From Patescibacteria group bacterium (lineage in GTDB: Bacteria > Patescibacteriota > Minisyncoccia > Moranbacterales > UBA2206), in assembly GCA_022711335.1 (NCBI GenBank), contig JAKLFF010000001.1, positions 405,754-469,753 of the forward strand: a DNA stretch of 64,000 nucleotides. The letters are read 5' to 3'. Position numbers and translations under genes: made by a program. The notes beneath the pieces were generated by a model. That model had not been told where the DNA came from. It worked only from the letters and a program-made list of their open reading frames with translations, and did no database searches. Numbering within the stretch: position 1 is the first letter of the stretch; each line of letters begins with the position of its first letter. Below, piece by piece: positions 2,723-38,153 of this stretch.

Positions 2723-3208
2723 ATGAGAGTTTCAATTGAAGTGGAGAAAGAAGTAAGAACAAACGGAGTTGTCATAGTGTGGTGTAATAATGGTTTATAT
2801 TTTGACGAGGGATATGAAGATTGGGAGGAAGGTCTGTTTGCCAACGTTAGTCATGCAGAGAAATTTATAAAAGATGTACTGGCAACTAAAGCTGGGACGG
2901 ATTATACTTTTACAATTCGTCCATATATCAGGAAAGGAACAATGGATGAATTGTATGAGGTTCTGTATAACAAGAGAACGAAAACAGTTCAGCTCTTCGA
3001 TATCGGTCGCCAACCTATCTGGATTGGTGGTGATAACAAGCTCAATATGAGTCTCGAAGTCTTGCATGTTTTGCTTTGCTTTCTCAAAACATTTGGTCAT
3101 AACTTCCAGCCACTCTGGGATGTAGATTCAAGGGAGTGCTGGGTTCATACGCGGGTATACGAGGATGGAAGGGAGAAGTATATAAACAATCGATATTATG
3201 ATTTATAA
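2723..3208 (+). CDS. Hypothetical protein
   Basis: 161-aa ORF with a good RBS (AAAAGGAGCAAAGTATG) and its own promoter, followed by a terminator hairpin. No recognisable domain. Confidence 0.5.
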   Translation: MRVSIEVEKEVRTNGVVIVWCNNGLYFDEGYEDWEEGLFANVSHAEKFIKDVLATKAGTDYTFTIRPYIRKGTMDELYEVLYNKRTKTVQLFDIGRQPIWIGGDNKLNMSLEVLHVLLCFLKTFGHNFQPLWDVDSRECWVHTRVYEDGREKYINNRYYDL

Positions 3209-3241
3209 CAAATGATCCGTGTAGTTTGCTAAAAGAGTTTT

Positions 3242-3272
3242 TCCCCGACGACAGCGTTCGTCGGGGTTTTTA
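3242..3272 (+). terminator. Rho-independent terminator
   Basis: CCCCGACGACAGCG/TTCGTCGGGG hairpin followed by TTTTTATTT. Confidence 0.5.
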
Positions 3273-3278
3273 TTTCCA

Positions 3279-3316
3279 CAAAAAAGACGCGAGTATTTCG
3301 CGTCTCTACATTTTTT
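3279..3316 (-). terminator. Rho-independent terminator downstream of polA (possibly bidirectional)
   Basis: AGACGCGAGTATTTCGCGTCT hairpin, flanked by an A-run on the + strand (a U-run for the minus transcript) and TTTTTT on the other side. Confidence 0.45.
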
Positions 3317-3346
3317 GTTCCATGTTTTATGTTATATGCTATATGA

Positions 3347-6052
3347 CTAAATTTCTCCCCAATTATCCCCAATCTTCACGTCGACGAGTAGCGGAACTTT
3401 GAGCTTATAAACTGATTCCATAATTTCCTTAACTTTCTTTGCTACTTCTTCGGCAATTTCTTCCTTTACTTCAAGTATTATTTCGTCGTGAACCTGTAAT
3501 ATCATTCGTATATTCGTATTGGATTCGTAGTTCGTAGAGACTTCTATCATCGCCAGTTTCACAATGTCGGCTGCCAGACCCTGGATCGGCATATTAATTG
3601 CCATTCGCTCGGCGGCGTTTTGAACTTGGAAGTTAGGAGAATTTATTTCGTGGATATAGCGCCGGCGGCCGACTTCCGTTTCCACATATTCATGCTCCCT
3701 GGCAAATGCTTTCGTGTTTTTGATATAACTGGCCACTCCCTGAAACTTTTCCATATATTCATCGATGAATTTTTTGGCTTCTTCGCGATCGATTCCAGCG
3801 GACTGGGAAAATCCGAAGACACTCATGCCATAAATTATCCCGAAATTAAGAGCTTTCGCTTTTCTCCTCATAGCTTCCGTGACTTGGGACAAGGTAACCT
3901 TGTTTATTTCTGCCGCTGTTGCCCGATGGATATCTTCCCCTTTCCAAAAAAGATCAATGAGTTTTTTGTCTTCACTGACGTGAGCAACCACTCGAAGATC
4001 AATTTGAGAATAGTCAGCACTGACGAGTTTCCAGCCTTTTTCCGCTTCAAATGCTACACGAAGAAGTTGGCCCAAGTCTGTCCGAATAGGAATATTTTGG
4101 AGATTGGGTTCAGAAGAGCTTAGTCTCCCCGTGGCTGTAACAGCTTGATTATAGGTCGTGTGAATTCTTTGATCTTTATCAACAAGAAGCGGCAGCGCAT
4201 CAAGGTAGGTGGTTTTTAGTTTGAAAACTTCCCGGTATTCTTCTATTTTTTCAATAATTTTATGTTCCTGCTTGATTTTCTGCAGTTCCGTGGAAGCCGT
4301 GGAATAGTCGGTTTTCCCTTTTTTGATATCCACCGTGGGAATTTTCAGCTTTTCAAATAATATCGGTGCCAATTGCTTTGGAGAATTGATATTAAATTTT
4401 TCTCCTGCTAATTTGTAGATGCTTTTTTCCAAGTTTTCAATCCTTTTTCCAATTTTAGCTGAAATGCCTTTGAAAATAATCGTATTTAATTTTACTCCGA
4501 ATATTTCCATTTCAGAGAGAATCCTGATGAGCGGTGTTTCAATATTTTCAAAAACGTATTTCAAATTATTCTTTTTGTCCTGCGTTTCGCATATTTTTTC
4601 CATTTTTTCTTCCAATATATTTTTCAACTTGAAGATATAGCCGGCACTCTGGCAATATTTTTCCGCCATAACTTTCGGGGATTCTATTTCCAGCCCCAGC
4701 TGCCCTTTTTTTTCCAGAGTTTCTATTTCTTCACCTAGATTCTCTAAAACCAGCTTTTCCATTTCTATTTTGGCACCGGGATTAAGAACATAAGCCGCCA
4801 GCATTATATCAAATAATTTCCCCTCGATATTTATTCCATAGCGTTCCATTATTTCTATGTCCTTTTTCAAATCAAAACCGATTTTCATGATTTTTTTGTT
4901 CTGAAATATTCTTTTGATGGCTGCTTTATTTTTTTCACTATACTCAATATAATTCGCCCGGCCAGTCTTCCAACTGAAAGCCACGCCCCAAAGCTCCCGT
5001 TCTAAAATTTTCTCCCCGCTGGTTTTAAGTTGAATGGATATTTCTTCCTGTTTTTCAAGATTTTTAAAAAATTCATCTATATTTTTATCATCTACATATT
5101 CATACTTAAAGTCTCTTACCCCTTTTGTATTTTTATTCGTAGATTCGAATTTTATTCGTAGATTCGAATCGGTCATGGGTATTCTTTTTACCAGGCTATA
5201 GAAATTTAGGTCATTAAATAATCTCACTAATTTTTCCCGGTCAAATTCATGCGTCCTGGCTTTTTCAAGATCAATTTCCACCGGAACATTAGTTCGAATA
5301 GTGGCCAGTTTTTTGCTTTGAATGGCAATGCTTCGATCACGTTCCAGTTTGTCTTTCACCGCCCCTTTTACTTCATCCAGATTGGCATATACATTTTCCA
5401 AAGTTTCATATTTTTTAAGAAGTTCGATGGCGGTTTTTTCCCCAATACCTTTTACACCGGGGATATTGTCCGACGCATCTCCGCGAAGACCTTTAAAATC
5501 AATAAGTTGTTCCGGGGTAAGTGCATAGCGTTCTTTTATTTTTTCACTGTCATATAAAACAGCATCAGAAAGACCCCGACGCATAGTATAAACTTTAGTT
5601 TTCCCATTAACGAGCTGCAACGTATCTAAATCTCCGGTTACAATTATATTTTCGATTCCGCCAGCCGGCGGATTTTCTTCGACATATTTCACAACTGTTC
5701 CAATCACATCGTCCGCTTCAAACCCTTGCTTTTCCAAAATGGGAATATTCATTGCCCGCACCACCTCTTTGACGCGTCCAATCTGCGCATATAGTTCATC
5801 CGGAGCTTTCACTCTCGTTGCTTTGTATTCTTTGTATTCCTCATGCCGAAAAGTCGGTCCGGCCAGGTCGAAGGTAGCAATGATATAGTCCGGCTGGAAT
5901 TTGGCAATCACCGAAAGAATGGTCGAAGCAAACCCATAAACCGCATTGACCAGCTCACCGCTTTTTGTTGAAAGCGGCGGCAGGGCATGATAAGAACGAT
6001 GAATAATAGCATTGCCATCAATAAGAATCAATTTTGGAGATGATTTATTCAT
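3347..6052 (-). CDS. polA: DNA polymerase I
   Basis: 901 aa. The N-terminal 5'-3' exonuclease pattern (LILIDGNAIIHRSYHALPPL, ...GIGEKTA) is followed by the family-A polymerase motifs (RRKAKALNFGIIYG, QVHDEIILEV). Confidence 0.9.
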   Translation of the reverse strand: MNKSSPKLILIDGNAIIHRSYHALPPLSTKSGELVNAVYGFASTILSVIAKFQPDYIIATFDLAGPTFRHEEYKEYKATRVKAPDELYAQIGRVKEVVRAMNIPILEKQGFEADDVIGTVVKYVEENPPAGGIENIIVTGDLDTLQLVNGKTKVYTMRRGLSDAVLYDSEKIKERYALTPEQLIDFKGLRGDASDNIPGVKGIGEKTAIELLKKYETLENVYANLDEVKGAVKDKLERDRSIAIQSKKLATIRTNVPVEIDLEKARTHEFDREKLVRLFNDLNFYSLVKRIPMTDSNLRIKFESTNKNTKGVRDFKYEYVDDKNIDEFFKNLEKQEEISIQLKTSGEKILERELWGVAFSWKTGRANYIEYSEKNKAAIKRIFQNKKIMKIGFDLKKDIEIMERYGINIEGKLFDIMLAAYVLNPGAKIEMEKLVLENLGEEIETLEKKGQLGLEIESPKVMAEKYCQSAGYIFKLKNILEEKMEKICETQDKKNNLKYVFENIETPLIRILSEMEIFGVKLNTIIFKGISAKIGKRIENLEKSIYKLAGEKFNINSPKQLAPILFEKLKIPTVDIKKGKTDYSTASTELQKIKQEHKIIEKIEEYREVFKLKTTYLDALPLLVDKDQRIHTTYNQAVTATGRLSSSEPNLQNIPIRTDLGQLLRVAFEAEKGWKLVSADYSQIDLRVVAHVSEDKKLIDLFWKGEDIHRATAAEINKVTLSQVTEAMRRKAKALNFGIIYGMSVFGFSQSAGIDREEAKKFIDEYMEKFQGVASYIKNTKAFAREHEYVETEVGRRRYIHEINSPNFQVQNAAERMAINMPIQGLAADIVKLAMIEVSTNYESNTNIRMILQVHDEIILEVKEEIAEEVAKKVKEIMESVYKLKVPLLVDVKIGDNWGEI

Positions 6053-6087
6053 ATCCTAAGTATAATTTGAGATTTAACTTAAGGCAA

Positions 6088-6122
6088 CAAAAAAAGAGTT
6101 GTCTTAAAACAGCTCTTTTTTG
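6088..6122 (-). terminator. Possible intrinsic terminator after the cyclophilin gene
   Basis: Imperfect hairpin AGAGTTGTCTTAAAACAGCTCT flanked by A/T runs. Weak. Confidence 0.3.
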
Positions 6123-6143
6123 AAAAATTAGACCTAAAAAATA

Positions 6144-6896
6144 TTATTTTTCTAAAAGCTCCACACTGCTTATTATTACATTTTCAACCGGCCGGTCATT
6201 AGCCCCAGTCTGAACATTTTCAATCTTGAGCGCCGTGTCCATGCCGGAAACTACATGGCCAAAAACGGTGTAGCTGGGAGGAAGCGGATAGCTGGGGCTA
6301 GCCGTCACAATAAAAAACTGGCTGCCATTGGTGTTGGGCCCGGAATTGGCCATAGCGAGCGTTCCTTGGGCGTATTTTTCCGTTCCTTTGAGCTCATCGG
6401 CAAACTTATATCCCGGTCCGCCAGTTCCCCACATATTTATTTTACTTTCATCTTTTGAAAGAGGATCGCCGCCCTGAATCATAAAACTTTTAATTACCCG
6501 GTGAAATTTGGTTCCGTCATAAAACTTTTCATTTGCAAGTTTTAGAAAATTATTGACTGTGTTTGGCGCGTTTTTCGCGTCAAATTTTATCTTAATGTCG
6601 CCAAGGTTGGTTTTGAGCGTTGCTTCCATATATTTTTTAGATAAATTATTATTTTCATCATTTTCCCCTTTCACATTTCCCTCATTAAGAGCGTTTTGCA
6701 ATCTTTCGTTTTCCTTATTTACCGCGTTATTTGTATCTTCATGCGCTTTTTTGTTGATATCGACCATCTCAGGCACATAATTGGCTGCATCTTCGATCGG
6801 CTGTTCTGCGGCTTTTTTTACATCAGATCCCACGCAACCGGACAAAAGAGCGGCCAAAAAAATTATGCTGATGGATAATAATATTTTTTTATTCAT
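6144..6896 (-). CDS. Cyclophilin-type peptidyl-prolyl cis-trans isomerase, lipoprotein
   Basis: Lipobox LLSGC at the N-terminus, then a low-complexity linker. The cyclophilin core is FHRVIKSFMIQGGDP...GTLAMANSGPNTNGSQFFIV. Confidence 0.8.
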   Translation of the reverse strand: MNKKILLSISIIFLAALLSGCVGSDVKKAAEQPIEDAANYVPEMVDINKKAHEDTNNAVNKENERLQNALNEGNVKGENDENNNLSKKYMEATLKTNLGDIKIKFDAKNAPNTVNNFLKLANEKFYDGTKFHRVIKSFMIQGGDPLSKDESKINMWGTGGPGYKFADELKGTEKYAQGTLAMANSGPNTNGSQFFIVTASPSYPLPPSYTVFGHVVSGMDTALKIENVQTGANDRPVENVIISSVELLEK

Positions 6897-7224
6897 TTCT
6901 TTTGTTTTTATTAATTAGATAAACAATTAAAAAAATAATCAGATAAATTAAAATAAAAATAAAGATCCAGCCATTGCGTTCCAGGCGGCAGCCGATTATG
7001 CTTTTTTTGTCCCGGCACCAGCTAAAAAACCGGTTTTGCAGAAACGGGAAAACCACCCAAGCCGGAACAATAAAATATTTGTCGAAAATATAAAGAGCAA
7101 CGTTGATAATGCTGCCGATTTGCAATGTTACCTTCAAATTATTATTTAATTTTATTTTCATAATTATTTTGCCATCCTGAATATGCTTACCTCGCCGGCA
7201 GGCATGGAAAGTTTGGAATGGCAA
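6889..7224 (-). CDS. Hypothetical small membrane protein (probable start at 7161)
   Basis: ORF with a C-terminal hydrophobic helix. An internal Met at 7161 (MKIKLNNN) is a more plausible start. No motif. Confidence 0.3.
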   Translation of the reverse strand: MPFQTFHACRRGKHIQDGKIIMKIKLNNNLKVTLQIGSIINVALYIFDKYFIVPAWVVFPFLQNRFFSWCRDKKSIIGCRLERNGWIFIFILIYLIIFLIVYLINKNKRNE

Positions 7225-28764: not shown

Positions 28765-29042
28765 TTTAATTTTATCTCCTTGACCGCCCCTTCGCCCAAT
28801 TCCTCATTCATTTTCCGAATTATTTTCTGCCGGTTTATCCACAGTTCCGACGCAAATGTTGGGCTTTCGCTTTTCACGAAAACAGTCCTGTTCTTGAAAA
28901 AATCCGCTCTCAATTTTTCCGCGCCGTAATTGCCGTATTCTTCCTTAATCACGCGCGAAAAAACATAAAAAACATCCTTGTCGGAAAAAGAATGCACAAC
29001 GGCCTTTTTATGTTTTTCTAAAAGGTTTTTTAGGGATTTCAT
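28761..29042 (-). CDS. DUF721/DciA-like small protein
   Basis: 93 aa. ...KNRTVFVKSESPTFASELWINRQKIIRKMNEELGEGAVKEIKLK matches the DUF721 pattern (V.V.S..WA.EL...L...IN..LG...V..I). Confidence 0.45.
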   Translation of the reverse strand: MKSLKNLLEKHKKAVVHSFSDKDVFYVFSRVIKEEYGNYGAEKLRADFFKNRTVFVKSESPTFASELWINRQKIIRKMNEELGEGAVKEIKLK

Positions 29043-30676
29043 ATTTTTTCCAAAACATAATATAAATTTTCATCCCCCTCGCCGGTTTTCAGTGGCAATT
29101 TTTCAATCTTTTTAATCTTAAACCCGGTCAGTTTCGCCAATTCTTCAATGTCTTCATGAGAATAGGCATATCTTGTCGCAAAATGCTGCCCGTCGGGAGA
29201 ATCATAAATGCTTCCGTACCGAAAATTCCGAATGCCCCGCTTTTTCATTTCACTAGCATATTCTTCCACCATTTTTTTGTACCCACCTTTTTCTCGATTG
29301 GGAATGTCAAAAATAAACTGTCCGCCCGATGCCAAAATCCGGTTGGCTTCACGGAATAATTGAACCTGATCAATGATGGAATAATCATGCAAAATATTTC
29401 TTCCCAGAGAATAAACTGTATTCATACTTTCATTTTGAATCGCATTATTGTGCCAGTCGCCCTGAAAAACTTTTGCAACATGACCAGTTTTTTCAATGGC
29501 TTCTTTAGTTTTCTCCACGTGCCTCTGGGTGAAATCATATCCAGATATATCGTATCCGTCTTTAGCTAGTTCAGTTATCAGTCTTCCCGCTCCGCAGCCC
29601 ATTTCCAACGCTTTTTCATCCTTTCTGATCAAAGATTCCAAAAGCTCTACTTCTTTTTCATTCATTCTTTCATTGACTTTATATTCTTCGAATTTTATAT
29701 TTTCCTCGTAAAATTTTTGCAGATTTGAAATGGCGATTTTGTCATGGTTGGGAGTAATTAATGATCTGGCGTAAGCATATTCCTCATTCATATCGGAACT
29801 ACCCTCAATACGCTCGTTAATTTTTTTGCGAACAATCTCTGCGCCATATGCTTCCGTCAAAACAAACATGATCACTTTCGCTTTTTCTATTGGTCCGAAT
29901 CTCAGATAATCGAATAAAGCTACGTCAAAATCAGGAGAAATTTCTTTTCGGCCTTTAAGGCATTCGGCTATTTCTCTAGCATGGTATCTGGAATAAAAAT
30001 CACGATCAATATAATTAAGAAGATAAAAGTCAGTCTTCCAATCGCCAATTTTCTCTTTGTGTTTTTTGAAATTCTTGAGTATCTCTGACGTTGTTCTGCC
30101 AAATATTTCGTGATAATCCATCATTTCTAGAATGGCATCGCGTTCCAAATTTTCCGGTTCTTTTTCTCCTCTTTCTTCCAAATCATCTTGATCTGGCTGA
30201 TGGATGCTCCGACAATATTCCAATCTTTGTCTTTCTTCTTCAGTATAATCATCGGGTTCGTAGTCGGAAAGATTGGCCCACATGGCTCTGTCCAGCCATT
30301 CTTTTCTTCTTTCCTTGTATAATTTTATAAGGTATTCTCCGAAAAATTCTGCCGCTCTTTTTGGATTATTTTCAAACATTTGGGAAATAAGCACCGCCTT
30401 GAAGTCTCCAAATTCATCAACGTCATTATCATAAAGATAATCAGTGTTGTATTTTTCCGGGAAATTATTTGAAATGAAAATTTCCCCGACCATTCGCCAA
30501 CCTGCTTGGCTTTTCAATATTTCATCCGCGTTTTTACCGCGCAATTCTTCAGGCAATCCGTCCTTTAATGTATCAAAAAATTCCTGTACGTCTTTCTCAT
30601 TAAAAATAACTTTCTCCTCTGGCAGAACGATTTCTTCTTTTTCAGAATTACCCTGAACCGGTATTTTTTCAAACAT
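29039..30676 (-). CDS. Class I SAM-dependent methyltransferase domain protein with a large N-terminal region of unknown function
   Basis: C-terminal motif I LEMGCGAGRLITELAKDGYDISGYDFTQ and a post-I region ...ILASGGQFIFDIPN. The N-terminal ~330 aa show no match. Confidence 0.55.
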   Translation of the reverse strand: MFEKIPVQGNSEKEEIVLPEEKVIFNEKDVQEFFDTLKDGLPEELRGKNADEILKSQAGWRMVGEIFISNNFPEKYNTDYLYDNDVDEFGDFKAVLISQMFENNPKRAAEFFGEYLIKLYKERRKEWLDRAMWANLSDYEPDDYTEEERQRLEYCRSIHQPDQDDLEERGEKEPENLERDAILEMMDYHEIFGRTTSEILKNFKKHKEKIGDWKTDFYLLNYIDRDFYSRYHAREIAECLKGRKEISPDFDVALFDYLRFGPIEKAKVIMFVLTEAYGAEIVRKKINERIEGSSDMNEEYAYARSLITPNHDKIAISNLQKFYEENIKFEEYKVNERMNEKEVELLESLIRKDEKALEMGCGAGRLITELAKDGYDISGYDFTQRHVEKTKEAIEKTGHVAKVFQGDWHNNAIQNESMNTVYSLGRNILHDYSIIDQVQLFREANRILASGGQFIFDIPNREKGGYKKMVEEYASEMKKRGIRNFRYGSIYDSPDGQHFATRYAYSHEDIEELAKLTGFKIKKIEKLPLKTGEGDENLYYVLEKI

Positions 30677-30724
30677 ATTTTTTGTGCTTAAGCAATTCTA
30701 TTCTATCAAATCCAGGGAAAAGAA

Positions 30725-30815
30725 AAAAGGCGAGCGGGTCGTGGCGTGGTAGCCTATCCCGGATGCTCGCCCTTAGCGGTTTCGGTTTTTTTAGGGAGAC
30801 CGAAAACTCCCGCCG
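30725..30815. repeat. Structured ~85-bp element, copy 1 (direct repeat of 31737-31827)
   Basis: GGCGAGCGGGTCGTGGCGTGGTAGCCTATCCCGGATGCTCGCC (stem GGCGAGC/GCTCGCC) + TTAGCGGTTTCGGTTTTTTTAGGGAGACCGAAAACTCCC (second stem GGGAG/CTCCC). Nearly identical to the copy 1 kb away. Confidence 0.6.
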
Positions 30816-30841
30816 GCTATTCAGGGGATGCCGGTCACTCC

Positions 30842-31093
30842 TCAAAAAATTTGTTTTTTTCGGCCGGTCCACCAGCCGACTTCCTCCTCCCGCACCTTCA
30901 AGATGCAGGAGATCTCGAAGTAGTCCTTGGGCTCTCCAAAGCCCTCAGACTCTTCGACTGTGTCTAAAAACAACTGTTCCTCGCCGGTGGCGAGGAACTT
31001 CTTCTCTAATTCCCTGACCACGTCGCCGTGGCCAGAGTCGAACAACAGGCCGTGTCGCAGCCCGTTGTCCTTGATTTCAAATTTCTTTCCCAT
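30842..31093 (-). CDS. Hypothetical small protein (GC-rich islet)
   Basis: 83 aa from the ATG at 31093, with a strong RBS (AGAAAGGAGAAAAATATG). The codon usage is visibly GC-richer than in flanking genes. Confidence 0.4.
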   Translation of the reverse strand: MGKKFEIKDNGLRHGLLFDSGHGDVVRELEKKFLATGEEQLFLDTVEESEGFGEPKDYFEISCILKVREEEVGWWTGRKKQIF

Positions 31094-31251
31094 ATTTTTC
31101 TCCTTTCTATGGGAAATTAACTTCACTTCTGAACCCGCAAAGCCAATCTTTACGGGTTCGGAATGAAGGGCAAAACTTTTGTCGTGGTAGACTCAAGTCT
31201 TGCCATTCAAGTGGTTCCCTTTTTATATACCGCTGGGACAGCGGTCGGAAA

Positions 31252-31590
31252 TCAGAGTTTTTCAAAAATCACTCTGATTTCCTTAATCCGGAACCATCCT
31301 GCGTGGCGAAAGCCAAGCAGTTTGGTTCCGTCGACCGGGTCCATGACCCGGTCATTCTTGCAAAAGAGCACGGGCTTGTCAGGCCCGGCTATCTGCAAAA
31401 ACTGCTGCTGCAGCGGAAGTGGGGCCACGATGGCCACCACGTCCGCCGCAGCGATCTCCTCGGCCAATTCATGCGCCGAAGAGATCGTCCGATTGACCTG
31501 GTGAACTTCCACCAGGCCAAAAATTCTTTTCAAGTCGGCCGATTGCTCGGCCGACATCTCATGCCTGGAAAACCACAAGACTTTCGTCAT
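31252..31590 (-). CDS. Hypothetical small protein (GC-rich islet)
   Basis: 112 aa from the ATG at 31590 (RBS AGGAAAGGAGAATCTCATG): MTKVLWFSRHEMSAEQSADLKRIFG.... No motif recognised. Confidence 0.4.
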   Translation of the reverse strand: MTKVLWFSRHEMSAEQSADLKRIFGLVEVHQVNRTISSAHELAEEIAAADVVAIVAPLPLQQQFLQIAGPDKPVLFCKNDRVMDPVDGTKLLGFRHAGWFRIKEIRVIFEKL

Positions 31591-31736
31591 GAGATTCTCC
31601 TTTCCTGCTGAACATTTCCCTTGCGCCGTTTCGCTCCCAACCACATCCTGATCAGCATTCAGGACTGGGCCAAGCGCAAAGAAAATTTTTTCACTTCCGA
31701 TTCTGCGAAGACAATCCTCACAGACTCGGAATGAAA

Positions 31737-31827
31737 GGCGAGCGGGTTGTGGCGTGGTAGCCTATCCCGGGTGCTCGCCTATTTTAGGTTTCGGTTTTTT
31801 TAGGGAGACCGAAAACTCCCTTGAGAG
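31737..31827. repeat. Structured ~85-bp element, copy 2
   Basis: GGCGAGCGGGTTGTGGCGTGGTAGCCTATCCCGGGTGCTCGCC + TATTTTAGGTTTCGGTTTTTTTAGGGAGACCGAAAACTCCC. A truncated third partial copy (CGGAATGAAGGGC) is at ~31140-31165. Confidence 0.6.
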
Positions 31828-32067
31828 CTACCACATCCGGTTGTCACACCGGGGGCAGCCCTCGTTCTTGACGTAGACATACTCGTCTACGCCAAATTCC
31901 TGCCCGCACCGCGGGCAGGAGAAAAAATTTTCATAGACTGCCAGATGGCAGTCTATGCATTCCCTCGCCTTCCCGGCGAGGGAAAAAATCTGGTGTGGAC
32001 AATCGTCCACACCAGATAAAATTCCTTCACTGCTGCAAATTTCGCAGCAGACGAATTTCTTTGCCAT
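31828..32067 (-). CDS. Zinc-ribbon (multi-CxxC) small protein
   Basis: 79 aa from the ATG at 32067 (perfect RBS GAAAGGAGGAACGCC-ATG): MAKKFVCCEICSSEG...CPHQ...CIDCH...CPRCGQEF...CPRCDNRMW, with four CxxC pairs. GC-rich. Confidence 0.5.
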   Translation of the reverse strand: MAKKFVCCEICSSEGILSGVDDCPHQIFSLAGKARECIDCHLAVYENFFSCPRCGQEFGVDEYVYVKNEGCPRCDNRMW

Positions 32068-32326
32068 GGCGTTCCTCCTTTCATGGCAAATGTTAACCTT
32101 TCCCCAGCCAGTGTAACTCCCGACCAGTCCGACACAACGTCGGACCCGGGCCATAGCTGGTTTGTCCAGCACCAACTACTCCTCACTAACAAAAGTTTGT
32201 TTAATAAAGAAAAGTTGGTGCTGGATTTATTCGCATGTGCCCATTCGTTAGGGCTATTCGCATACTTCAACCGAGAGAAAATAAAAGCTAATTGAAATAT
32301 GTAATAATTTATGCTAAGCTATTGCT

Positions 32327-32632
32327 ATGAGTACGGAGCAAATAGAACAAAAACTTATAGAAGCCATTGAAAAAGATCCTCATAAAAAGGACATGAAAAA
32401 AGTGTCTCTTTTCGGTTCTTATATCTATGGCCAACCCCGTGAAGATTCTGACGTGGATGTTTTAGTGGAATTTGAACCTAATTCTAGTATTAGTCTTTTT
32501 GACTTGGTTCATATCCGCCGAAATTTTTCTGAATTTATCGGGAAAAAAGTTGATCTTCTGACACCCTCCGCTCTTAGCAAGTATTTCCGCGATGAAGTAC
32601 TAGCCAAAGCTAAAACCATTTATGAAAAATGA
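32327..32632 (+). CDS. Nucleotidyltransferase (MNT/MntA-type) antitoxin
   Basis: ...VSLFGSYIYGQPREDSDVDVLVEF has the GS...D.D pol-beta NTase signature. Its stop overlaps the start of the HEPN gene. Confidence 0.7.
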   Translation: MSTEQIEQKLIEAIEKDPHKKDMKKVSLFGSYIYGQPREDSDVDVLVEFEPNSSISLFDLVHIRRNFSEFIGKKVDLLTPSALSKYFRDEVLAKAKTIYEK

Positions 32633-32954
32633 TCTCGTTTTTATAGGACATATTCAGGACTCTATCAATAACATCAATGAGTTTATTGGAAACTCTGATT
32701 TTGAAAGTTTTTCTAAAAATAAACTAGTGCTTAGCGGCGTAGTTCACGAATTTGAAATTATTGGCGAAGCCTCCAATAAAATCAGCCGTGAATTTTGCGA
32801 TTCTCACCCGGAAATACCCTGGAGAGACATGATTGATATGCGAAATGTGCTTATTCATGAATATTTTGGTATTATTCCTGAATCCGTCTGGGAAGCTTAT
32901 AAAAAAGACCTCCCCAAGCTTAAAACGGCCATAGACCAAATACTCATTTCTTAA
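32622..32954 (+). CDS. HEPN-domain (DUF86/HepT-type) toxin
   Basis: ...DMIDMRNVLIHEYFGI carries the R-x(4-6)-H HEPN motif. Translationally coupled to the MNT gene. Confidence 0.7.
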   Translation: MKNDLVFIGHIQDSINNINEFIGNSDFESFSKNKLVLSGVVHEFEIIGEASNKISREFCDSHPEIPWRDMIDMRNVLIHEYFGIIPESVWEAYKKDLPKLKTAIDQILIS

Positions 32955-33609
32955 CTTCCATTTTTTCTCGGTTGAATAATATTCAATTTTCAAAGATCCG
33001 TTTTGCGGATTTTTTGATTCCACAAAAATGCCAGTGAGTGTTCATCCATTAAAGAGAAGAGAGATTTTCTTTAGCTAATGAATAAATAATACTCACTGAC
33101 ATTTTTTGACTCTCTTCTCTAGACTTTTAGAAAGCCTGCTCCTGATTCCTACCTCACCCTGCCCTCTCCTTATAAAGGAGAGTGGGATTTGATAAGAACC
33201 AAGGACCACTTTCTATCCCGACGATGGCTCGTTGGGAGAGAAATAAGCTTATTGCCATTCATCCAGCTATCTTTTTTTGGAACGCATGTATGCGTTCCCT
33301 ACAATCTCTCTTCCCTTTGGATGAATTTAGTATGCTGCTTATTTCCAGTGCCATTTTATGATCCTTACCGCCCTTTCAGGCGATTTGGATACATATTATG
33401 TATATTTAATGTTCTTGGTTACGTGTCTCTCTCCTCTTTGGGCGATATTTCATCGTAACGGGCCATTATATCAGATATTACACTAAATGTCAATTTAAAT
33501 AGACTTATACTATTTTTATCCTATCGTAAATAAGCCATTTATACCTTTAATTTGACAAATTATGGCTTATTTGCTATACTATAAATGTTGACTTATTTTT
33601 TCGACATAT

Positions 33610-34374
33610 ATGAATCTATCTGACCAACTTACTCAATTTGGCCTTAATGATAAGCAAGCCATTGTATATCTGGCTCTTTTGGAGCTAGGCGCTAGTTCTG
33701 CTATTAATCTAGCTAAAAAGACCGGTATTTTGCGCACTACTGTCTATGACGTGCTTATCGAACTGGAAAAAAAAGGGCTTTTAAGCCAGACCAAAAAAGG
33801 CAAAAAAAGGCTTTTTCTGGCTGAAGAACCGGAAAATCTGGAAAATATTTTGGAAGAAAAGAGGGAAAAGCTGGCCAGTCTTATGCCGGCACTCAAAGGG
33901 CTTCTCAATACTTCCGGAACCAAGCCGGTAATCCGCTATTACGAAGGCTTGGAAGGCATCAAAGAAGTTTACCGAGATACCTTGAAATATAAAGGCGAAC
34001 TGGTGGCATTTGTAACGGAAAATATCATAAATAAACTGGGTCAGGATTTTGCTGACGAATATAAAGCAAAAAGAGTTAAATCACAAATTACGGTGCGCGT
34101 CATCGGGCCGGATACCGAAGAAATTATTGAGTATAAAAAAACAGACCAAAAAGATCTGAAAGAAACGCGGCTGGTTTCCAAAGAAAAGTTTCCCTTTTCC
34201 ATTGAAATGAATATTTACGGCAACAAAATCGCTTTTATGAGTTTTTCTGAATCTTTAGGGCTTATTGTAGAAAGCAATGAAATCGCTAAAAATATGAAAT
34301 TTATGTTTGAATTGGCCTGGAAGGGTGCCGGAAAAGAAATTGAAATTAAAAAAGAAGATGAATATTGGAGCTAG
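33610..34374 (+). CDS. TrmB-family transcriptional regulator
   Basis: FGLNDKQAIVYLALLELGASSAINLAKKTGILRTTVYDVLIELEKKGLL wHTH + C-terminal TrmB effector-like domain. Confidence 0.55.
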   Translation: MNLSDQLTQFGLNDKQAIVYLALLELGASSAINLAKKTGILRTTVYDVLIELEKKGLLSQTKKGKKRLFLAEEPENLENILEEKREKLASLMPALKGLLNTSGTKPVIRYYEGLEGIKEVYRDTLKYKGELVAFVTENIINKLGQDFADEYKAKRVKSQITVRVIGPDTEEIIEYKKTDQKDLKETRLVSKEKFPFSIEMNIYGNKIAFMSFSESLGLIVESNEIAKNMKFMFELAWKGAGKEIEIKKEDEYWS

Positions 34375-35338: not shown

Positions 35339-36496
35339 CTAATTTTTAATTGGCATCACGATATAGGTAAAATCATGTAAAACTTCGCCGGTTTGTTCAT
35401 TTATTTCCTTTAAAGCGATTGGCGTTGATTCACTGTTCATAAGAAAAGCCACTTTGGAAGTTGAGATGCTATTAATTCCATCTAAAAGATATTTTGAATT
35501 TAAAATTACTTCTTGAGATGGTCCAGAAACGTCAAATTTGAGCTCTGTTGAGTTTTCTCCAGTTTCCGCACTGCTAGCGCCTATAAAAATTTTCTTTACT
35601 CCAGAGTCAATTTTAATCGAAATCTCTCCTGATTTTCCCGAAGCAAAAATATTAGCCATTTTTACCGCGTTTTGAAACACGCTTTTTTCCAAAACTACCC
35701 TGGTTTTATAATCTTTTGGCATTATATGCTTATATTCAGGATATTTTCCATTAATCAACCTTGAAACAATTTTAGTCTCTTCTATTTCAAAAAAAATTTG
35801 CCCGGATTCAATCGTTATTTTCACATCACATTCTTCATTATTAGAAATAATTCTCATTACTTCATTTAATGTTCCAAATGGAATAATAATACTGTCTTTT
35901 TTGTTTATATAAGCCTCAAACACCTCTTTATTTATATTTTCCTTGTTTATACTAATTCTACTTTCAGAAAGACGAAAACTATCAGTTGAAGCAAAAAATA
36001 TCTCTTTTTGGCTTAAAATAAGGTTTATTCCAGTAAGCTCTTGTCTGGCTTCATTTTGAGCCACAGACACCATTTCCTTAGATAAGATATTTTTTAGATC
36101 AATACTATTAATATTTAATAGATATTCACTGCTTTTTTTAGGAATTAATGGAAAATCATCAGCTGATACCCCTTTTATAATTGCCTTAAAAGAGCCACTT
36201 TTTATTTTTATTCCCTGTTCAACACTTTCTATTAAAACATTATCTCCTTGAGGAAGATTATTAGAAAAACTACTAATTATTTTCGCTGGAATAGTTATTT
36301 TACCTTCTTTTTCCACTTTAACTCCCACTTTTACCTGAGCTCCCATTTCTAAATTTGTCGCGGAAAACACTAAAAACCCTTTTTTTGCTTCAAATAAAAT
36401 ATTATTTAGTATAGGCAAGGTGTTTTGCTTAGAAACAATCCTTTCTGTGTTGTATATCGCTTTTTTAAAGTTATCTTGAGTACAAATTAATTTCAT
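35339..36496 (-). CDS. dnaN: DNA polymerase III beta subunit (sliding clamp)
   Basis: 385 aa; MKLICTQDNFKKAIYNTERIVSKQNTLPILNNILFEA, three-domain length, positioned immediately downstream of dnaA. Confidence 0.85.
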   Translation of the reverse strand: MKLICTQDNFKKAIYNTERIVSKQNTLPILNNILFEAKKGFLVFSATNLEMGAQVKVGVKVEKEGKITIPAKIISSFSNNLPQGDNVLIESVEQGIKIKSGSFKAIIKGVSADDFPLIPKKSSEYLLNINSIDLKNILSKEMVSVAQNEARQELTGINLILSQKEIFFASTDSFRLSESRISINKENINKEVFEAYINKKDSIIIPFGTLNEVMRIISNNEECDVKITIESGQIFFEIEETKIVSRLINGKYPEYKHIMPKDYKTRVVLEKSVFQNAVKMANIFASGKSGEISIKIDSGVKKIFIGASSAETGENSTELKFDVSGPSQEVILNSKYLLDGINSISTSKVAFLMNSESTPIALKEINEQTGEVLHDFTYIVMPIKN

Positions 36497-36785
36497 AATA
36501 ATTTATATATAAAATTATTTAAAGTTATTACTATTTATTATATAAGCTTATTTTTGTGGATAAGTTTAGTTTTTAGCTTAAATAAAGCAAATAAAATGTT
36601 AATATATATTGGATAAGTTTTATTTTTATATACCCAGAGAGTGATGATAAGATATTAATTTAATTAAATAAAAAAGTAAACCACAAGCCGGAAACAGACG
36701 GAAAAATTATTTTGGACAAATTTTACACAGAGTTATTCTAGTGGTTTTACACAAATTATCCACCAAAGCAACCTGGAATCAGTAA
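36497..36785. promoter_or_regulatory. Putative oriC segment with DnaA boxes (dnaN-dnaA spacer)
   Basis: Perfect DnaA box TGTGGATAA at 36555-36563, TTATCCACC at 36755-36763 (1 mismatch), and ATTGGATAA at 36608-36616 (2 mismatches). The surrounding region is extremely AT-rich (a possible DUE). A further CGTGGATAA lies upstream of dnaA at ~38230. Confidence 0.5.
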
Positions 36786-38153
36786 TTAATTTATAGAATA
36801 GAGCTGTTCTCTGAGATAGTTTATTTCCTCGGCTATTTTTTCTTCCCTTTCTATTAATTCAGCTATTTTTTCGTAAGCGTGAAGGGCGGTAGTATGGTCG
36901 CGGCCTCCCATTCGATCCCCGATATTGGGAAAAGAATATTGAAGCTCGCTTCTCATGAGATACATTGCGATTTGTCTTGGTTTTACGACTTCCTGCTTCC
37001 TGTTTTTAGCTATTAAATCAGTTTCAGTTATATCATAAAAAGCAGACACTGTTTTTATGACGTGTTTATGGGTTACTCCCTTTTTTTTGCCACTGGAAAT
37101 AATTTCCGACAACATTTTTTTTACATAATTGAGATCAATTTTATTTTTAGAAAGCTGGGCGGAAACAAAAACCCTATTAAAAGCCCCTTCTAGTTCGCGG
37201 ATGTTGTTTTTTATGTTTTCGGCAATAAATTCTAGGGCATCGTCGTTAATTTCCATTTCCTGGTCAAGAGCTTTTTTTCTTAATATGGCCACTCTTGTTT
37301 CAAAATCTGGGCGGATAATATCAGCTATCATGCCGCCTTCAAAGCGCGATTTAAGCCTTTCTTCCAATATTTGTATGGCCTTGGGTGCTCTGTCGCTAGA
37401 AAGAACTATTTGCTTGTTTAATTGGTATAAATGGTTGAAAATATGAAAAAATTCTTCCTGCGTTTTTTCCTTTCCTGATATAAATTGGATATCGTCAATG
37501 ATCAATAAGTCGATTTTTTGGTAATAATCCTTAAAATCCCTTATCTTTCCTGTTTTTATGGAATCAATAAGCTCACTTGTGAATCTTTCTGAAGTTATAT
37601 ACTTTATCTTATGTTCAGGATTGTTTTTTAGTATTTCGTTGCCAATCGATTGGATTAAATGGGTTTTTCCCAGGCCTACGCCTCCATAGATAAAAAGAGG
37701 GTTATAAACGCTCCCCAGGTTTTGAGAAACAGCAAAACAAGCCGCTTTTGCAAGTTCATTGCTGCCTCCTACTACAAAATTATCAAAAGTATATTTGTGG
37801 TTCAAATTGCTTTCCTGATTTATAGGAGCCCTTTTTTCCCGAAAAAAAGCGTTATTTGAAGGAACTACGGCATCAACCATAGAGATCTTTTTTTCTGTCG
37901 ATTCTTGGTTAGCGGCGATGATGCAGGAAACCGTTTTTATGTCTTCCTGGATATTTCTCAATGCTCGCAGGATATAGAGGTTGTATTTGTTTTCAAGCCA
38001 TTCCTTGGCAAATCCATTGGGAACACTTATGATTACTTGACCATTTTTATTGGAAAAAATTGACGTATTTTTGAACCAGGTTATAAAGTTGGCCTTGGAA
38101 ATAGAAAGCTCAATTTCCGAAAGGACAGCTTGCCAAAGCTCTGTATTAGTCAT
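36786..38153 (-). CDS. dnaA: Chromosomal replication initiator protein DnaA
   Basis: Walker A GGVGLGKTHLIQSIGNEI, LLIIDDIQFISGKEKTQEEFFHIFN, sensor region VLSSDRAPK, and the C-terminal DNA-binding helix region (...KPRQIAMYLMR...). The start was set at the Met (MTNTELW) at 38153 rather than the track's upstream Met at 38330. Confidence 0.9.
   Translation of the reverse strand: MTNTELWQAVLSEIELSISKANFITWFKNTSIFSNKNGQVIISVPNGFAKEWLENKYNLYILRALRNIQEDIKTVSCIIAANQESTEKKISMVDAVVPSNNAFFREKRAPINQESNLNHKYTFDNFVVGGSNELAKAACFAVSQNLGSVYNPLFIYGGVGLGKTHLIQSIGNEILKNNPEHKIKYITSERFTSELIDSIKTGKIRDFKDYYQKIDLLIIDDIQFISGKEKTQEEFFHIFNHLYQLNKQIVLSSDRAPKAIQILEERLKSRFEGGMIADIIRPDFETRVAILRKKALDQEMEINDDALEFIAENIKNNIRELEGAFNRVFVSAQLSKNKIDLNYVKKMLSEIISSGKKKGVTHKHVIKTVSAFYDITETDLIAKNRKQEVVKPRQIAMYLMRSELQYSFPNIGDRMGGRDHTTALHAYEKIAELIEREEKIAEEINYLREQLYSIN

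Follow-up and report, generated by a model that had tools for sequence, protein, structure and literature searches.

A question raised by one short region of a bacterial chromosome is why the messenger RNA (mRNA) of three small genes should be folded into hairpins from nearly one end to the other. The region, referred to here as the islet, belongs to a Candidatus Moranbacteria chromosome of the Candidate Phyla Radiation (CPR) and lies within a 64,000-nucleotide stretch of contig JAKLFF010000001.1 (the window, whose numbering is used below). It is situated about 5 kb from dnaA in the gene order dnaN, a Pyr_redox-family oxidoreductase gene, TrmB, HEPN/MNT, islet, methyltransferase and DciA. Its three open reading frames (ORFs), ZnR79, ORF112 and ORF83, are all on the minus strand, and each has a strong Shine-Dalgarno sequence at the proper distance. 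The explanation that we favor, to which we give about an even chance, is that the islet is the exchangeable cargo of a conserved minus-strand unit whose transcript is kept hairpin-folded by selection on the sense RNA.

Hairpin saturation of the islet

The region had been singled out in the original prediction as a GC-rich islet, and its compositional contrast was confirmed by sliding GC values and by GC at third codon positions (GC3). The 1-kb bin 31001-32000 has a GC content of 0.518, the highest of the 64 bins of the window (the remaining bins range from 0.298 to 0.471), and in 400-nucleotide (nt) windows GC is 0.48-0.535 across 30600-32199 versus 0.35-0.39 on either side. GC3 is 0.64-0.71 in the islet genes and 0.29-0.40 in neighboring genes.

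The same block is saturated with RNA hairpins. In sliding 120-nt windows, the z-score of folding on the sense strand is -5 to -12 continuously from about 32260 to 30840, and it is near 0 in the genes for the methyltransferase, MNT and HEPN. A stretch of 290 nt around ZnR79 has a folding energy of -161 kcal/mol (dinucleotide-shuffle z = -12.6), and the ZnR79 coding sequence is a chain of eight near-perfect hairpins. Over 1601 nt, the sense RNA forms 36 local hairpins with a free energy of -804.6 kcal/mol, and 89% of the pairs span less than 60 nt. After adjustment for GC content, 14 of the 17 most structured windows of the 64 kb fall in the islet. Neither this saturation of the whole block nor the family of Shine-Dalgarno hairpins described below (D4) was part of the original prediction.

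One explanation for these features is that the islet is an ordinary island that came by horizontal transfer from a donor of higher GC content, with ordinary terminators and with RNA structure as a by-product of composition. The GC and GC3 contrast would fit such an origin, as would the membership of ORF112 in a phage-borne family. This explanation is contradicted, however, by shuffles of synonymous codons within each gene, which keep both the protein and the codon usage. Under these shuffles, z is -11.0 for ZnR79, -9.0 to -10.5 for ORF112 and -7.2 for ORF83, and it is -0.7 to -3.2 for neighboring genes of the window. Since z-scores of -7 to -12 persist under shuffles that preserve dinucleotides or protein and codon usage, composition is not the explanation. 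In addition, CPR orthologues of ORF112 with a similar GC content (0.44-0.54) give z-scores of only -0.1 to -4.0. We therefore regard an ordinary island as very improbable.

Saturation as a trait of the ORF112 family was also ruled out. The mean profile is flat over about 90 loci, and 81 distinct members have a median z of -1.8 (minimum -7.0), the window copy being the extreme. Stems in the window copy of ORF112 contain 21 bases that are found in none of eight orthologues; 15 of the 21 alter the amino acid, and at just 14% of these positions would the orthologue base pair with the present partner. Pairing may have been imposed by synonymous and also by amino-acid-changing substitutions. The stems of the islet have 8-27 pairs and are near-perfect, with loops mostly of 3-6 nt and about 9% G·U pairs. 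Each hairpin has its own unique sequence, and ORF112 has kept its length (112 aa versus 110-112 in orthologues). There was no enrichment of UNCG or GNRA tetraloops, no preferred codon-phase register of the stems and no long perfect inverted repeat, the longest stems having 13-27 pairs.

A hairpin chain was also seen in a viral contig of 156 kb (L096, IMGVR_UViG_3300035670_000022), in which about 35 near-perfect hairpins extend over about 1 kb (2780-3760, z = -27.6) at a distance of 1.3 kb upstream of an ORF112 homologue. GC is 0.58 in the chain and 0.45 in the contig; the chain overlaps an ORF of 234 aa whose synonymous-shuffle z is -15.3, and the antisense strand of the chain folds slightly better. 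No relatives of the chain were found. This observation hints that the phenomenon may be wider and may occur in phages too.

Cargo exchange at a fixed slot

What is conserved at this position, and what is not, is revealed by two relatives. A scan with the methyltransferase protein recovered the locus of a sister species (L116), in which the gene order is that of the window. L116 aligns with window positions 36000-32267 at 84.5% identity and with 29758-27000 at 92.6%, and it has no similarity to 32099-29758 and encodes none of the three cargo proteins there. The L116 cargo consists of genes for a 148-aa CPHC...CPEC protein and a secreted 105-aa protein, and both genes are followed by a GGCGAG(C)...CUCGCC hairpin and a U-tract. 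In a more distant relative (L118), TrmB is followed by a promoter, a leader, a gene for a 161-aa Cys-containing protein, a terminator and the methyltransferase gene, and HEPN/MNT is absent. The cargo of both relatives is GC-rich, with dinucleotide-shuffle z-scores of -5 to -9 and synonymous-shuffle z-scores of -8.3, -6.6 and -8.6, compared with +0.2 to -2.7 for the flanking genes in the synonymous shuffle. Because flanks and leader are alike and the cargo is unrelated across species, the islet is cargo that can be exchanged within a fixed slot, bounded by the TrmB-family regulator gene and the methyltransferase gene. Because the unrelated cargo of both relatives is equally saturated, saturation belongs to the slot and not to a particular gene.

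In the alignment with L116, the right edge of the variable segment falls within the methyltransferase gene (29039-30676, 545 aa, Pfam methyltransferase domain at residues 343-521) and not at a repeat. The N-terminal ~300 codons (29758-30676, minus strand) are AT-rich and unstructured (z ~0) and belong to the segment that differs between the sister species. Since the N-terminal ~300 residues cannot be aligned with L116, the hypervariable segment reaches into the methyltransferase gene, the catalytic C-terminal part of which is 92.6% identical at the DNA level. As the right breakpoint lies inside this gene, cargo may be exchanged by homologous recombination in leader, junction and methyltransferase sequences.

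Two observations concern the surroundings of the islet. Dense clusters of single-nucleotide polymorphisms among assemblies of the same species are present in the methyltransferase gene (29133-29459, in L010) and in TrmB (33999-34209, in L011 and L014); they flank the invariant islet at 1-2 kb on each side and look like short recombination tracts. The dnaA-dnaN intergenic region (36200-36800), at a distance of ~5 kb from the islet, has a GC content of ~0.23; with the minimum of the cumulative GC skew near 37 kb, it is probably the origin of replication.

The suggestion that the islet is horizontally acquired cargo stands as far as its foreign composition, its replaceability and the phage-borne family of ORF112 are concerned, and falls where a self-mobile module was envisaged. 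As in genomic islands, composition deviates and the content is replaced in close relatives. Genes called within 6 kb on either side (DnaA, DnaN, Pyr_redox protein, TrmB, HepT, MNT, methyltransferase, DciA, BacA and a penicillin-binding protein) include no recombinase, integrase or other mobility gene, the rest of the genome being outside this search; Rfam detected no tRNA gene in the 64-kb window, and the repeats lie within the variable segment and not at both of its ends. The idea that the repeats are att-like sites was not borne out, as there is no recombinase within 6 kb and no integron core, and the right edge is inside the methyltransferase gene. Nor is the islet a one-off insertion, for the slot, the promoter, the leader and the GC-rich structured character are conserved in three species, and arrays containing ORF112 lie beside TrmB in distant CPR genomes. 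A role as a defense module was likewise not supported: none of six cargo proteins tested matched PADLOC, which gave no match for ZnR79, ORF112, ORF83 or the cargo proteins of L116, L118 and L003 and only generic methyltransferase and helix-turn-helix matches for flanking genes.

Among the cargo genes, ORF112 (31252-31590, minus strand) is certainly a real protein-coding gene. A protein annotated in metagenome-assembled genomes of Candidatus Moranbacteria matches its 112-aa product at 100% identity; the product has 119 homologues, and an alignment of 51 members keeps the invariant residues. The window copy carries the family signature, namely W6 F7 S8 R9 H10 (the invariant WFSRH motif), Q16, V55 and the AIVAP motif in a protein of ~110 aa. 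AlphaFold predicts a small Rossmann-like fold with a predicted local distance difference test score (pLDDT) of 96.8; structure comparison gave no informative structural neighbor, and ORF112 has no Pfam family. The family is mostly phage-borne, its carriers being 78 IMG/VR loci, 12 loci in Clostridia-type genomes and 4 CPR-like genomes; GenBank phage records contained no match. In the Clostridia-type loci, the homologue lies between a Bro-N/ORF6C antirepressor gene and genes for SSB and an AAA_23 ATPase. ORF83 (30842-31093, minus strand, 83 aa) is a near-orphan with a single homologue (L001, 6023-6259, 58% identical), which has an in-frame TAG and is either a pseudogene or an instance of a recoded stop. 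ZnR79 (31828-32067, minus strand) is predicted to encode an orphan of 79 aa with four CxxC motifs, for which zinc-ribbon Pfam matches were sub-threshold only. No cargo protein matched Pfam above threshold, and none had a meaningful match in PHROGs.

In four more distant CPR genomes (L001, L003, L018 and L111), ORF112 occurs in arrays of small genes adjoining TrmB. The arrays share ORF83, a ~200-aa family and a basic peptide of 43-54 aa, and they have their own repeated structured punctuation and little hairpin saturation. In two of them, AAAAACTTCGC followed by a hairpin of variable sequence separates the small genes (6 copies in L001 across 3657-6677 and 3 in L018, whose sites include 5738-5790 and 6682-6740), and this hairpin at times sequesters a Shine-Dalgarno sequence. 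The AAAAACTTCGC punctuation is absent from the window. Large direct repeats were also seen immediately downstream of ORF112 homologues in L018, where a 115-nt repeat of 94% identity (5372-5486 and 7060-7174) brackets two genes, and in L112, where a unit of ~800 nt, mostly non-coding, is duplicated (1041-2525).

Selection on sense RNA or mutation

Is it the RNA or the DNA that the pairing serves? The sense strand folds 15-20% more stably in all three species, and it has more G·U pairs than the antisense strand in each of them (46 vs 26, 44 vs 9 and 16 vs 7). Mismatches were compared in helices that had been set strand-blind from Watson-Crick seeds only. Isolated helix mismatches comprised 10 of the G·U type on the sense strand, 1 of the A·C type and 3 others (binomial p = 0.012). 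Since a transition in a Watson-Crick pair should yield G·U-type and A·C-type mismatches equally, the ratio of 10 to 1 points to purifying selection acting on the sense RNA. Moreover, the saturated block has the same limits as the stretch running from the leader to the terminator, and compensatory change has kept the Shine-Dalgarno sequences of ZnR79 and ORF83 in hairpin loops. These Shine-Dalgarno hairpins form family D4, recognized by repeat comparison at 31080-31117 for ORF83 and present at 32054-32091 for ZnR79, where the Shine-Dalgarno sequence is in the loop and the start codon in the 3' arm (both minus strand). The D4 hairpin has 9 pairs, 2 of which are compensatory between the two copies.

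A serious rival to selection is mutational palindromization without any RNA function. Template-switch mutation is able to generate hairpins as well as repair them (PMC8794818), transcription stimulates it (PMC3820800), and for the coding palindromes of Nematomorpha mitochondria a conversion mechanism is preferred over function by the authors who described them in 2019 (PMC6649704). Transcription- or replication-associated template switching would similarly perfect the hairpins of the islet, with selection purging only the harmful conversions. The near-perfect stems with loops mostly of 3-6 nt would be accounted for in this way, as would the similar structure of unrelated cargo in three species and the tolerance of amino-acid-changing substitutions; the block is also near the origin, is taken to be heavily transcribed, and has its parallel in the Nematomorpha palindromes. 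A DNA-only process, however, predicts neither the G·U mismatch bias nor the greater stability of the sense strand in each of the three species. It is also at odds with the sparing of the adjacent methyltransferase and toxin-antitoxin genes, with the placement of Shine-Dalgarno sequences in loops, and with the lack of perfect inverted repeats longer than the 13-27 pairs of the longest stems. We rank selection on the sense RNA first and consider palindromization alone unlikely, although the two could act jointly.

It might also be asked whether the block is a gene array at all. In AT-rich genomes, structured islands of high GC content are a typical mark of functional RNAs, and the islet could be a large structured non-coding or dual-function RNA (e.g., one titrating an RNA-binding protein or nuclease as a decoy or sponge) in which ZnR79 and ORF83 are incidental frames. 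Both of these are orphans, the block is overlapped on each strand by other long frames, several in all, and the comparable 1-kb hairpin chain of the L096 phage contig likewise has several overlapping frames. Such an RNA is nonetheless improbable. ORF112 keeps every family-invariant residue of what is certainly a protein, all three ORFs have strong and well-placed Shine-Dalgarno sequences, and the four CxxC pairs of ZnR79 are properly spaced. In addition, sister species differ in the sequence of the cargo, which leaves no particular RNA fold conserved among them.

If the sense RNA is indeed under selection, what would the hairpin chain do? It may shield the mRNA from single-strand-specific endonucleases, 3' exonucleases and Rho loading and thereby make it long-lived. 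At the same time, it would slow ribosomes and throttle translation.

Cassette anatomy and comparison with known systems

The islet can be read as two cassettes, the first consisting of ZnR79 and the second of ORF112 and ORF83, each of which comprises a leader motif, its ORF or ORFs and a 3' hairpin with a U-tract. The leader is a 60-nt, three-helix element that is conserved in the window species, L116 and L118 just upstream of the cargo. Copy 1 lies at 32100-32160 (minus strand, 78 bits), 33 nt upstream of the ZnR79 start. A covariance model made from the element in the three species also recovered a diverged copy 2 at 31617-31680 (minus strand, 25 bits, E 4.6e-4), 27 nt upstream of the ORF112 start, the outer helix of which is fully compensated. 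In the four copies, 98.7% of the cells are paired and 11 of the 20 pairs change on both sides; none of 500 shuffles equaled the native pairing, and slid controls pair at 29-48%. Nucleotides of the internal loops are invariant, and the motif keeps a fixed position of 27-73 nt upstream of start codons. It had no Rfam match and was not found in the more distant CPR arrays, also with search filters off. The leader is thus a new covarying RNA motif, and we infer that it is the regulatory input of each cassette.

The 3' ends of the cassettes are marked by the repeats that had first drawn attention to the islet. Two near-identical elements of ~85 bp with GGCGAGC and GGGAG stems had been described, and they are indeed present, as ~90-nt repeats at 30726-30811 and 31734-31820. 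They have a 43-nt core with 2 differing positions and an identical 34-nt block, with a variable stretch of 7-8 nt between core and block. Each repeat pattern occurs exactly twice in the 64 kb (0.00 expected). The predicted layout was correct as to both stems and the U-run and reversed as to their order; because the ORFs are on the minus strand, the small GGGAG...CUCCC hairpin comes first and is followed by A7, the large GGCGAGC...GCUCGCC hairpin (a 10-pair outer stem with a 29-nt structured loop) and the U-tract. A presumed third, partial copy at ~31140-31165 turned out to belong to a different repeat, the D2 junction hairpin (31113-31171 and 31681-31739).

Both 3' modules have, on the transcribed strand, a GC-rich stem directly followed by a U-tract, as predicted for an intrinsic terminator; a consensus terminator scan skipped them, as their loop exceeds 8 nt. 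Copy 1 (30712-30815, minus strand) is followed by UUUUUUCUUUU (U6CU4) at the cargo end, where the hairpin-saturated block stops, and it would be the intrinsic terminator of the cargo. Copy 2 (31737-31827, minus strand) closes cassette 1, has a weak U-tract (UUUCAUU) and is probably a leaky terminator. The modules may serve both to stop transcription and to shield 3' ends, the weak internal copy letting some transcription pass and the copy at the end being a strong stop. Terminator cassettes had been one of the options offered for the repeats, and this option gains weight from the same hairpin and U-tract closing the unrelated cassettes of L116. The repeat is not a common genome-wide terminator within the 64 kb, where it is confined to the islet: in the window the GGCGAG...CTCGCC frame occurs only at the two modules, and among the window and 118 loci fetched only in the islets of the window and L116. 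The repeat had no match in Rfam, and exact-pattern scans of metagenome and viral contigs yielded no copy of it.

An alternative role for these elements is suggested by integrons, including attC clusters without an integrase. Like them, the islet has small genes of mostly unknown function in one orientation, structured ends of each unit, variable cargo and a toxin-antitoxin pair nearby. The 3' modules and junction hairpins could accordingly be single-strand-folded sites of a recombinase encoded elsewhere, which would explain why the cargo differs between sister species while the structured 3' element of the cassette is kept, and why distant CPR arrays split their small genes by genome-specific structured repeats (6 copies in L001, 115 nt in L018). 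The two strands of the module, however, read ...GGTTTCGGTTTTTTTAGGGAG... and GGGAGTTTTCGG..., and on direct reading neither contains GTTRRRY or RYYYAAC, so an integron-type core is absent from both strands of the modules. The genes called in the 6 kb to each side encode neither IntI nor another recombinase, and the exchange boundary is inside the flanking gene, as homologous recombination predicts. Given that a terminator is also the simpler account of a large hairpin with a U-tract, integron-like cassettes seem quite unlikely.

Other paired elements occur between the cassettes and at the border of the islet. The D2 junction hairpins lie on the minus strand upstream of ORF112 (31681-31739, z = -4.3) and ORF83 (31113-31171, z = -4.85); the copies are 73% identical, with 4 of 20 pairs compensatory and two conserved U-G pairs on the sense strand, and a D2-like hairpin can be read from the sequence after the first 3' module of L116. 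At the far edge, an 11-bp inverted repeat had been proposed at 32171-32226. There is an inverted repeat here, and its extent is greater, as it forms a 61-nt hairpin with 27 pairs (32165-32225, minus strand). This hairpin lies in a species-specific segment of 100 nt (32167-32266) that has no counterpart in L116 and is bordered by ATCCAGC and AACCAGC; these borders suggest that it is a small palindromic insertion resembling a miniature inverted-repeat transposable element. Rfam gave no match at the gathering threshold in the whole window; permissive thresholds gave nothing relevant, the best sub-threshold match being Chloroflexus-1 (30.5 bits vs a threshold of 181.5).

The transcription unit likely starts at a sigma-70-type promoter at 33465-33493 (minus strand), in which TTGACA and TATAAT are separated by 17 nt with a TG element (12/12 match) and which would drive the islet. 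A counterpart in L118 lies upstream of leader and cargo with no toxin-antitoxin pair between them. Downstream of the promoter is a structured RNA of ~430 nt (33020-33460, minus strand) that ends in a long hairpin with a U-run (33107 to 33024). It has conserved blocks and compensatory stem changes relative to L116 (4130-4650) and L118 (5025-5480), a z-score of -6 in windows across 33000-33240 and no Rfam family, and it is a candidate for a new non-coding RNA or long regulatory leader. In L118, it continues directly into the leader motif. The leader motif and this upstream RNA, together with TrmB, may supply the regulation of the unit.

The MNT/HEPN toxin-antitoxin pair (NTP_transf_2/Polbeta and HepT-like in Pfam) lies antisense to the unit in the window and in L116. 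In the window it occupies 32266-32976 (genes at 32327-32954, plus strand), between 26-nt arms at 32266-32291 and 32951-32976 that are 85% complementary. The same arms in L118 close a simple hairpin with a loop of ~30 nt and without the toxin-antitoxin genes. MNT/HEPN seems to have been inserted into the loop of an ancestral hairpin and is a neighbor of the islet, outside its cargo. The HEPN RNase was considered as a cause of the saturation, and this idea is weakened by L118, where the cargo is structured with no HEPN/MNT at the locus.

Several points weigh against the exchange of a selected, hairpin-folded cargo as we have described it. The toxin-antitoxin pair, antisense to the unit, separates the proposed promoter from the cargo, and a scan found no good promoter adjoining the cargo. 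Promoter use, termination and mRNA stability are all things that we infer. ZnR79 has no homologue among 5.8 billion proteins, AlphaFold gives it a pLDDT of 52 from the single sequence, and its translation is an unproven prediction. The Shine-Dalgarno sequence of ORF112 is not displayed in a loop of the minimum-free-energy fold. The statistics of the leader motif come from four sequences of three species in an alignment fitted to the model, near-perfect stems with minimal loops are a signature of template switching as well, and the islet is free of differences across 8 assemblies of the species, so that variation within the species is lacking. What the analysis does show is the anatomy, the exchange of cargo from species to species, the hairpin structure and the strand that carries it.

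How does the islet compare with systems that are already known? Operon punctuation by hairpins that stabilize 3' ends is familiar from the repetitive extragenic palindromic elements of E. coli and the RNase III sites of phage T7. As in such stabilizers and terminators, GC-rich hairpins with U-tracts stand at cassette ends, are duplicated within the operon and plausibly allow internal read-through. The 3' modules differ from ordinary terminators in the 29-nt structured loop, the preceding small hairpin and A7, their restriction to the islet and their conservation across differing cargo. Riboswitches and protein-binding leaders resemble the 60-nt motif in their covarying helices, invariant internal-loop nucleotides and fixed position; unlike them, the motif has no Rfam family, identifiable ligand, expression platform or terminator and is represented by 4 copies in 3 species. 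The Rickettsia palindromic elements and the GC clusters of yeast mitochondria, to which PMC6649704 refers, are GC-rich palindromic selfish elements of AT-rich genomes. They too place GC-rich hairpins in an AT-rich genome, at times within coding regions, but they are repeated families inserted as units, whereas the hairpins of the islet are each unique and the length of ORF112 is kept.

Coding RNA that is folded nearly throughout, with start sites in hairpins, is found in the genomes of MS2 and Q-beta and in type I toxin mRNAs (e.g., PMC6733600), in which structure governs translation and stability. Those are RNA genomes or single short mRNAs with one conserved fold, whereas the islet is a DNA-encoded three-gene operon with generic saturation that is independent of gene identity. 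The Nematomorpha palindromes (PMC6649704) share with the islet inverted repeats inside functional coding sequence, with both arms coding and degenerate positions keeping the pairing. They are perfect, up to 284 bp in length and scattered over the mitochondrial genome, with no reported strand-specific wobble. The hairpins of the islet have short stems of 8-27 pairs with wobble pairs and strand-biased mismatches, tolerate G·U on the sense strand only, are limited to one transcript-delimited bacterial block of 1.45 kb and recur in unrelated sister cargo. The islet is therefore not an integron, an Rfam family, a known defense system or a Nematomorpha-type palindrome. Functionally it resembles a punctuated operon of accessory genes at a hot spot of recombination, to which hairpin recoding of the whole transcript has been added as a further layer, and we found no description of whole-transcript hairpin recoding in bacteria in the literature searched. 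It is possible, though we advance it only tentatively, that the islet represents an undescribed gene organization, in which a fixed slot holds cassettes that are all written as hairpin chains, gated by a new 60-nt leader motif and functioning either as mRNA armored against nucleases and Rho or as a dual-function decoy RNA.

Coding sequences are normally only weakly constrained by RNA structure, and here six unrelated genes in three species have been recoded, to the point of altered amino acids, so as to place almost every base in a hairpin, while their orthologues and neighbors are without such recoding. The work has also brought to light a new covarying leader motif and a hypervariable accessory-gene slot by the replication origin, with genes in common with phages. 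If the recoding is mutational, it would be the first bacterial counterpart of the Nematomorpha coding palindromes, limited to one transcription unit. If it is selected, it would be a natural case of armoring of the mRNA of a whole operon, would open a direct route to the agents that attack or silence transcripts in CPR bacteria, organisms not culturable alone, and would show how far the genetic code can bend to carry a second, structural message.

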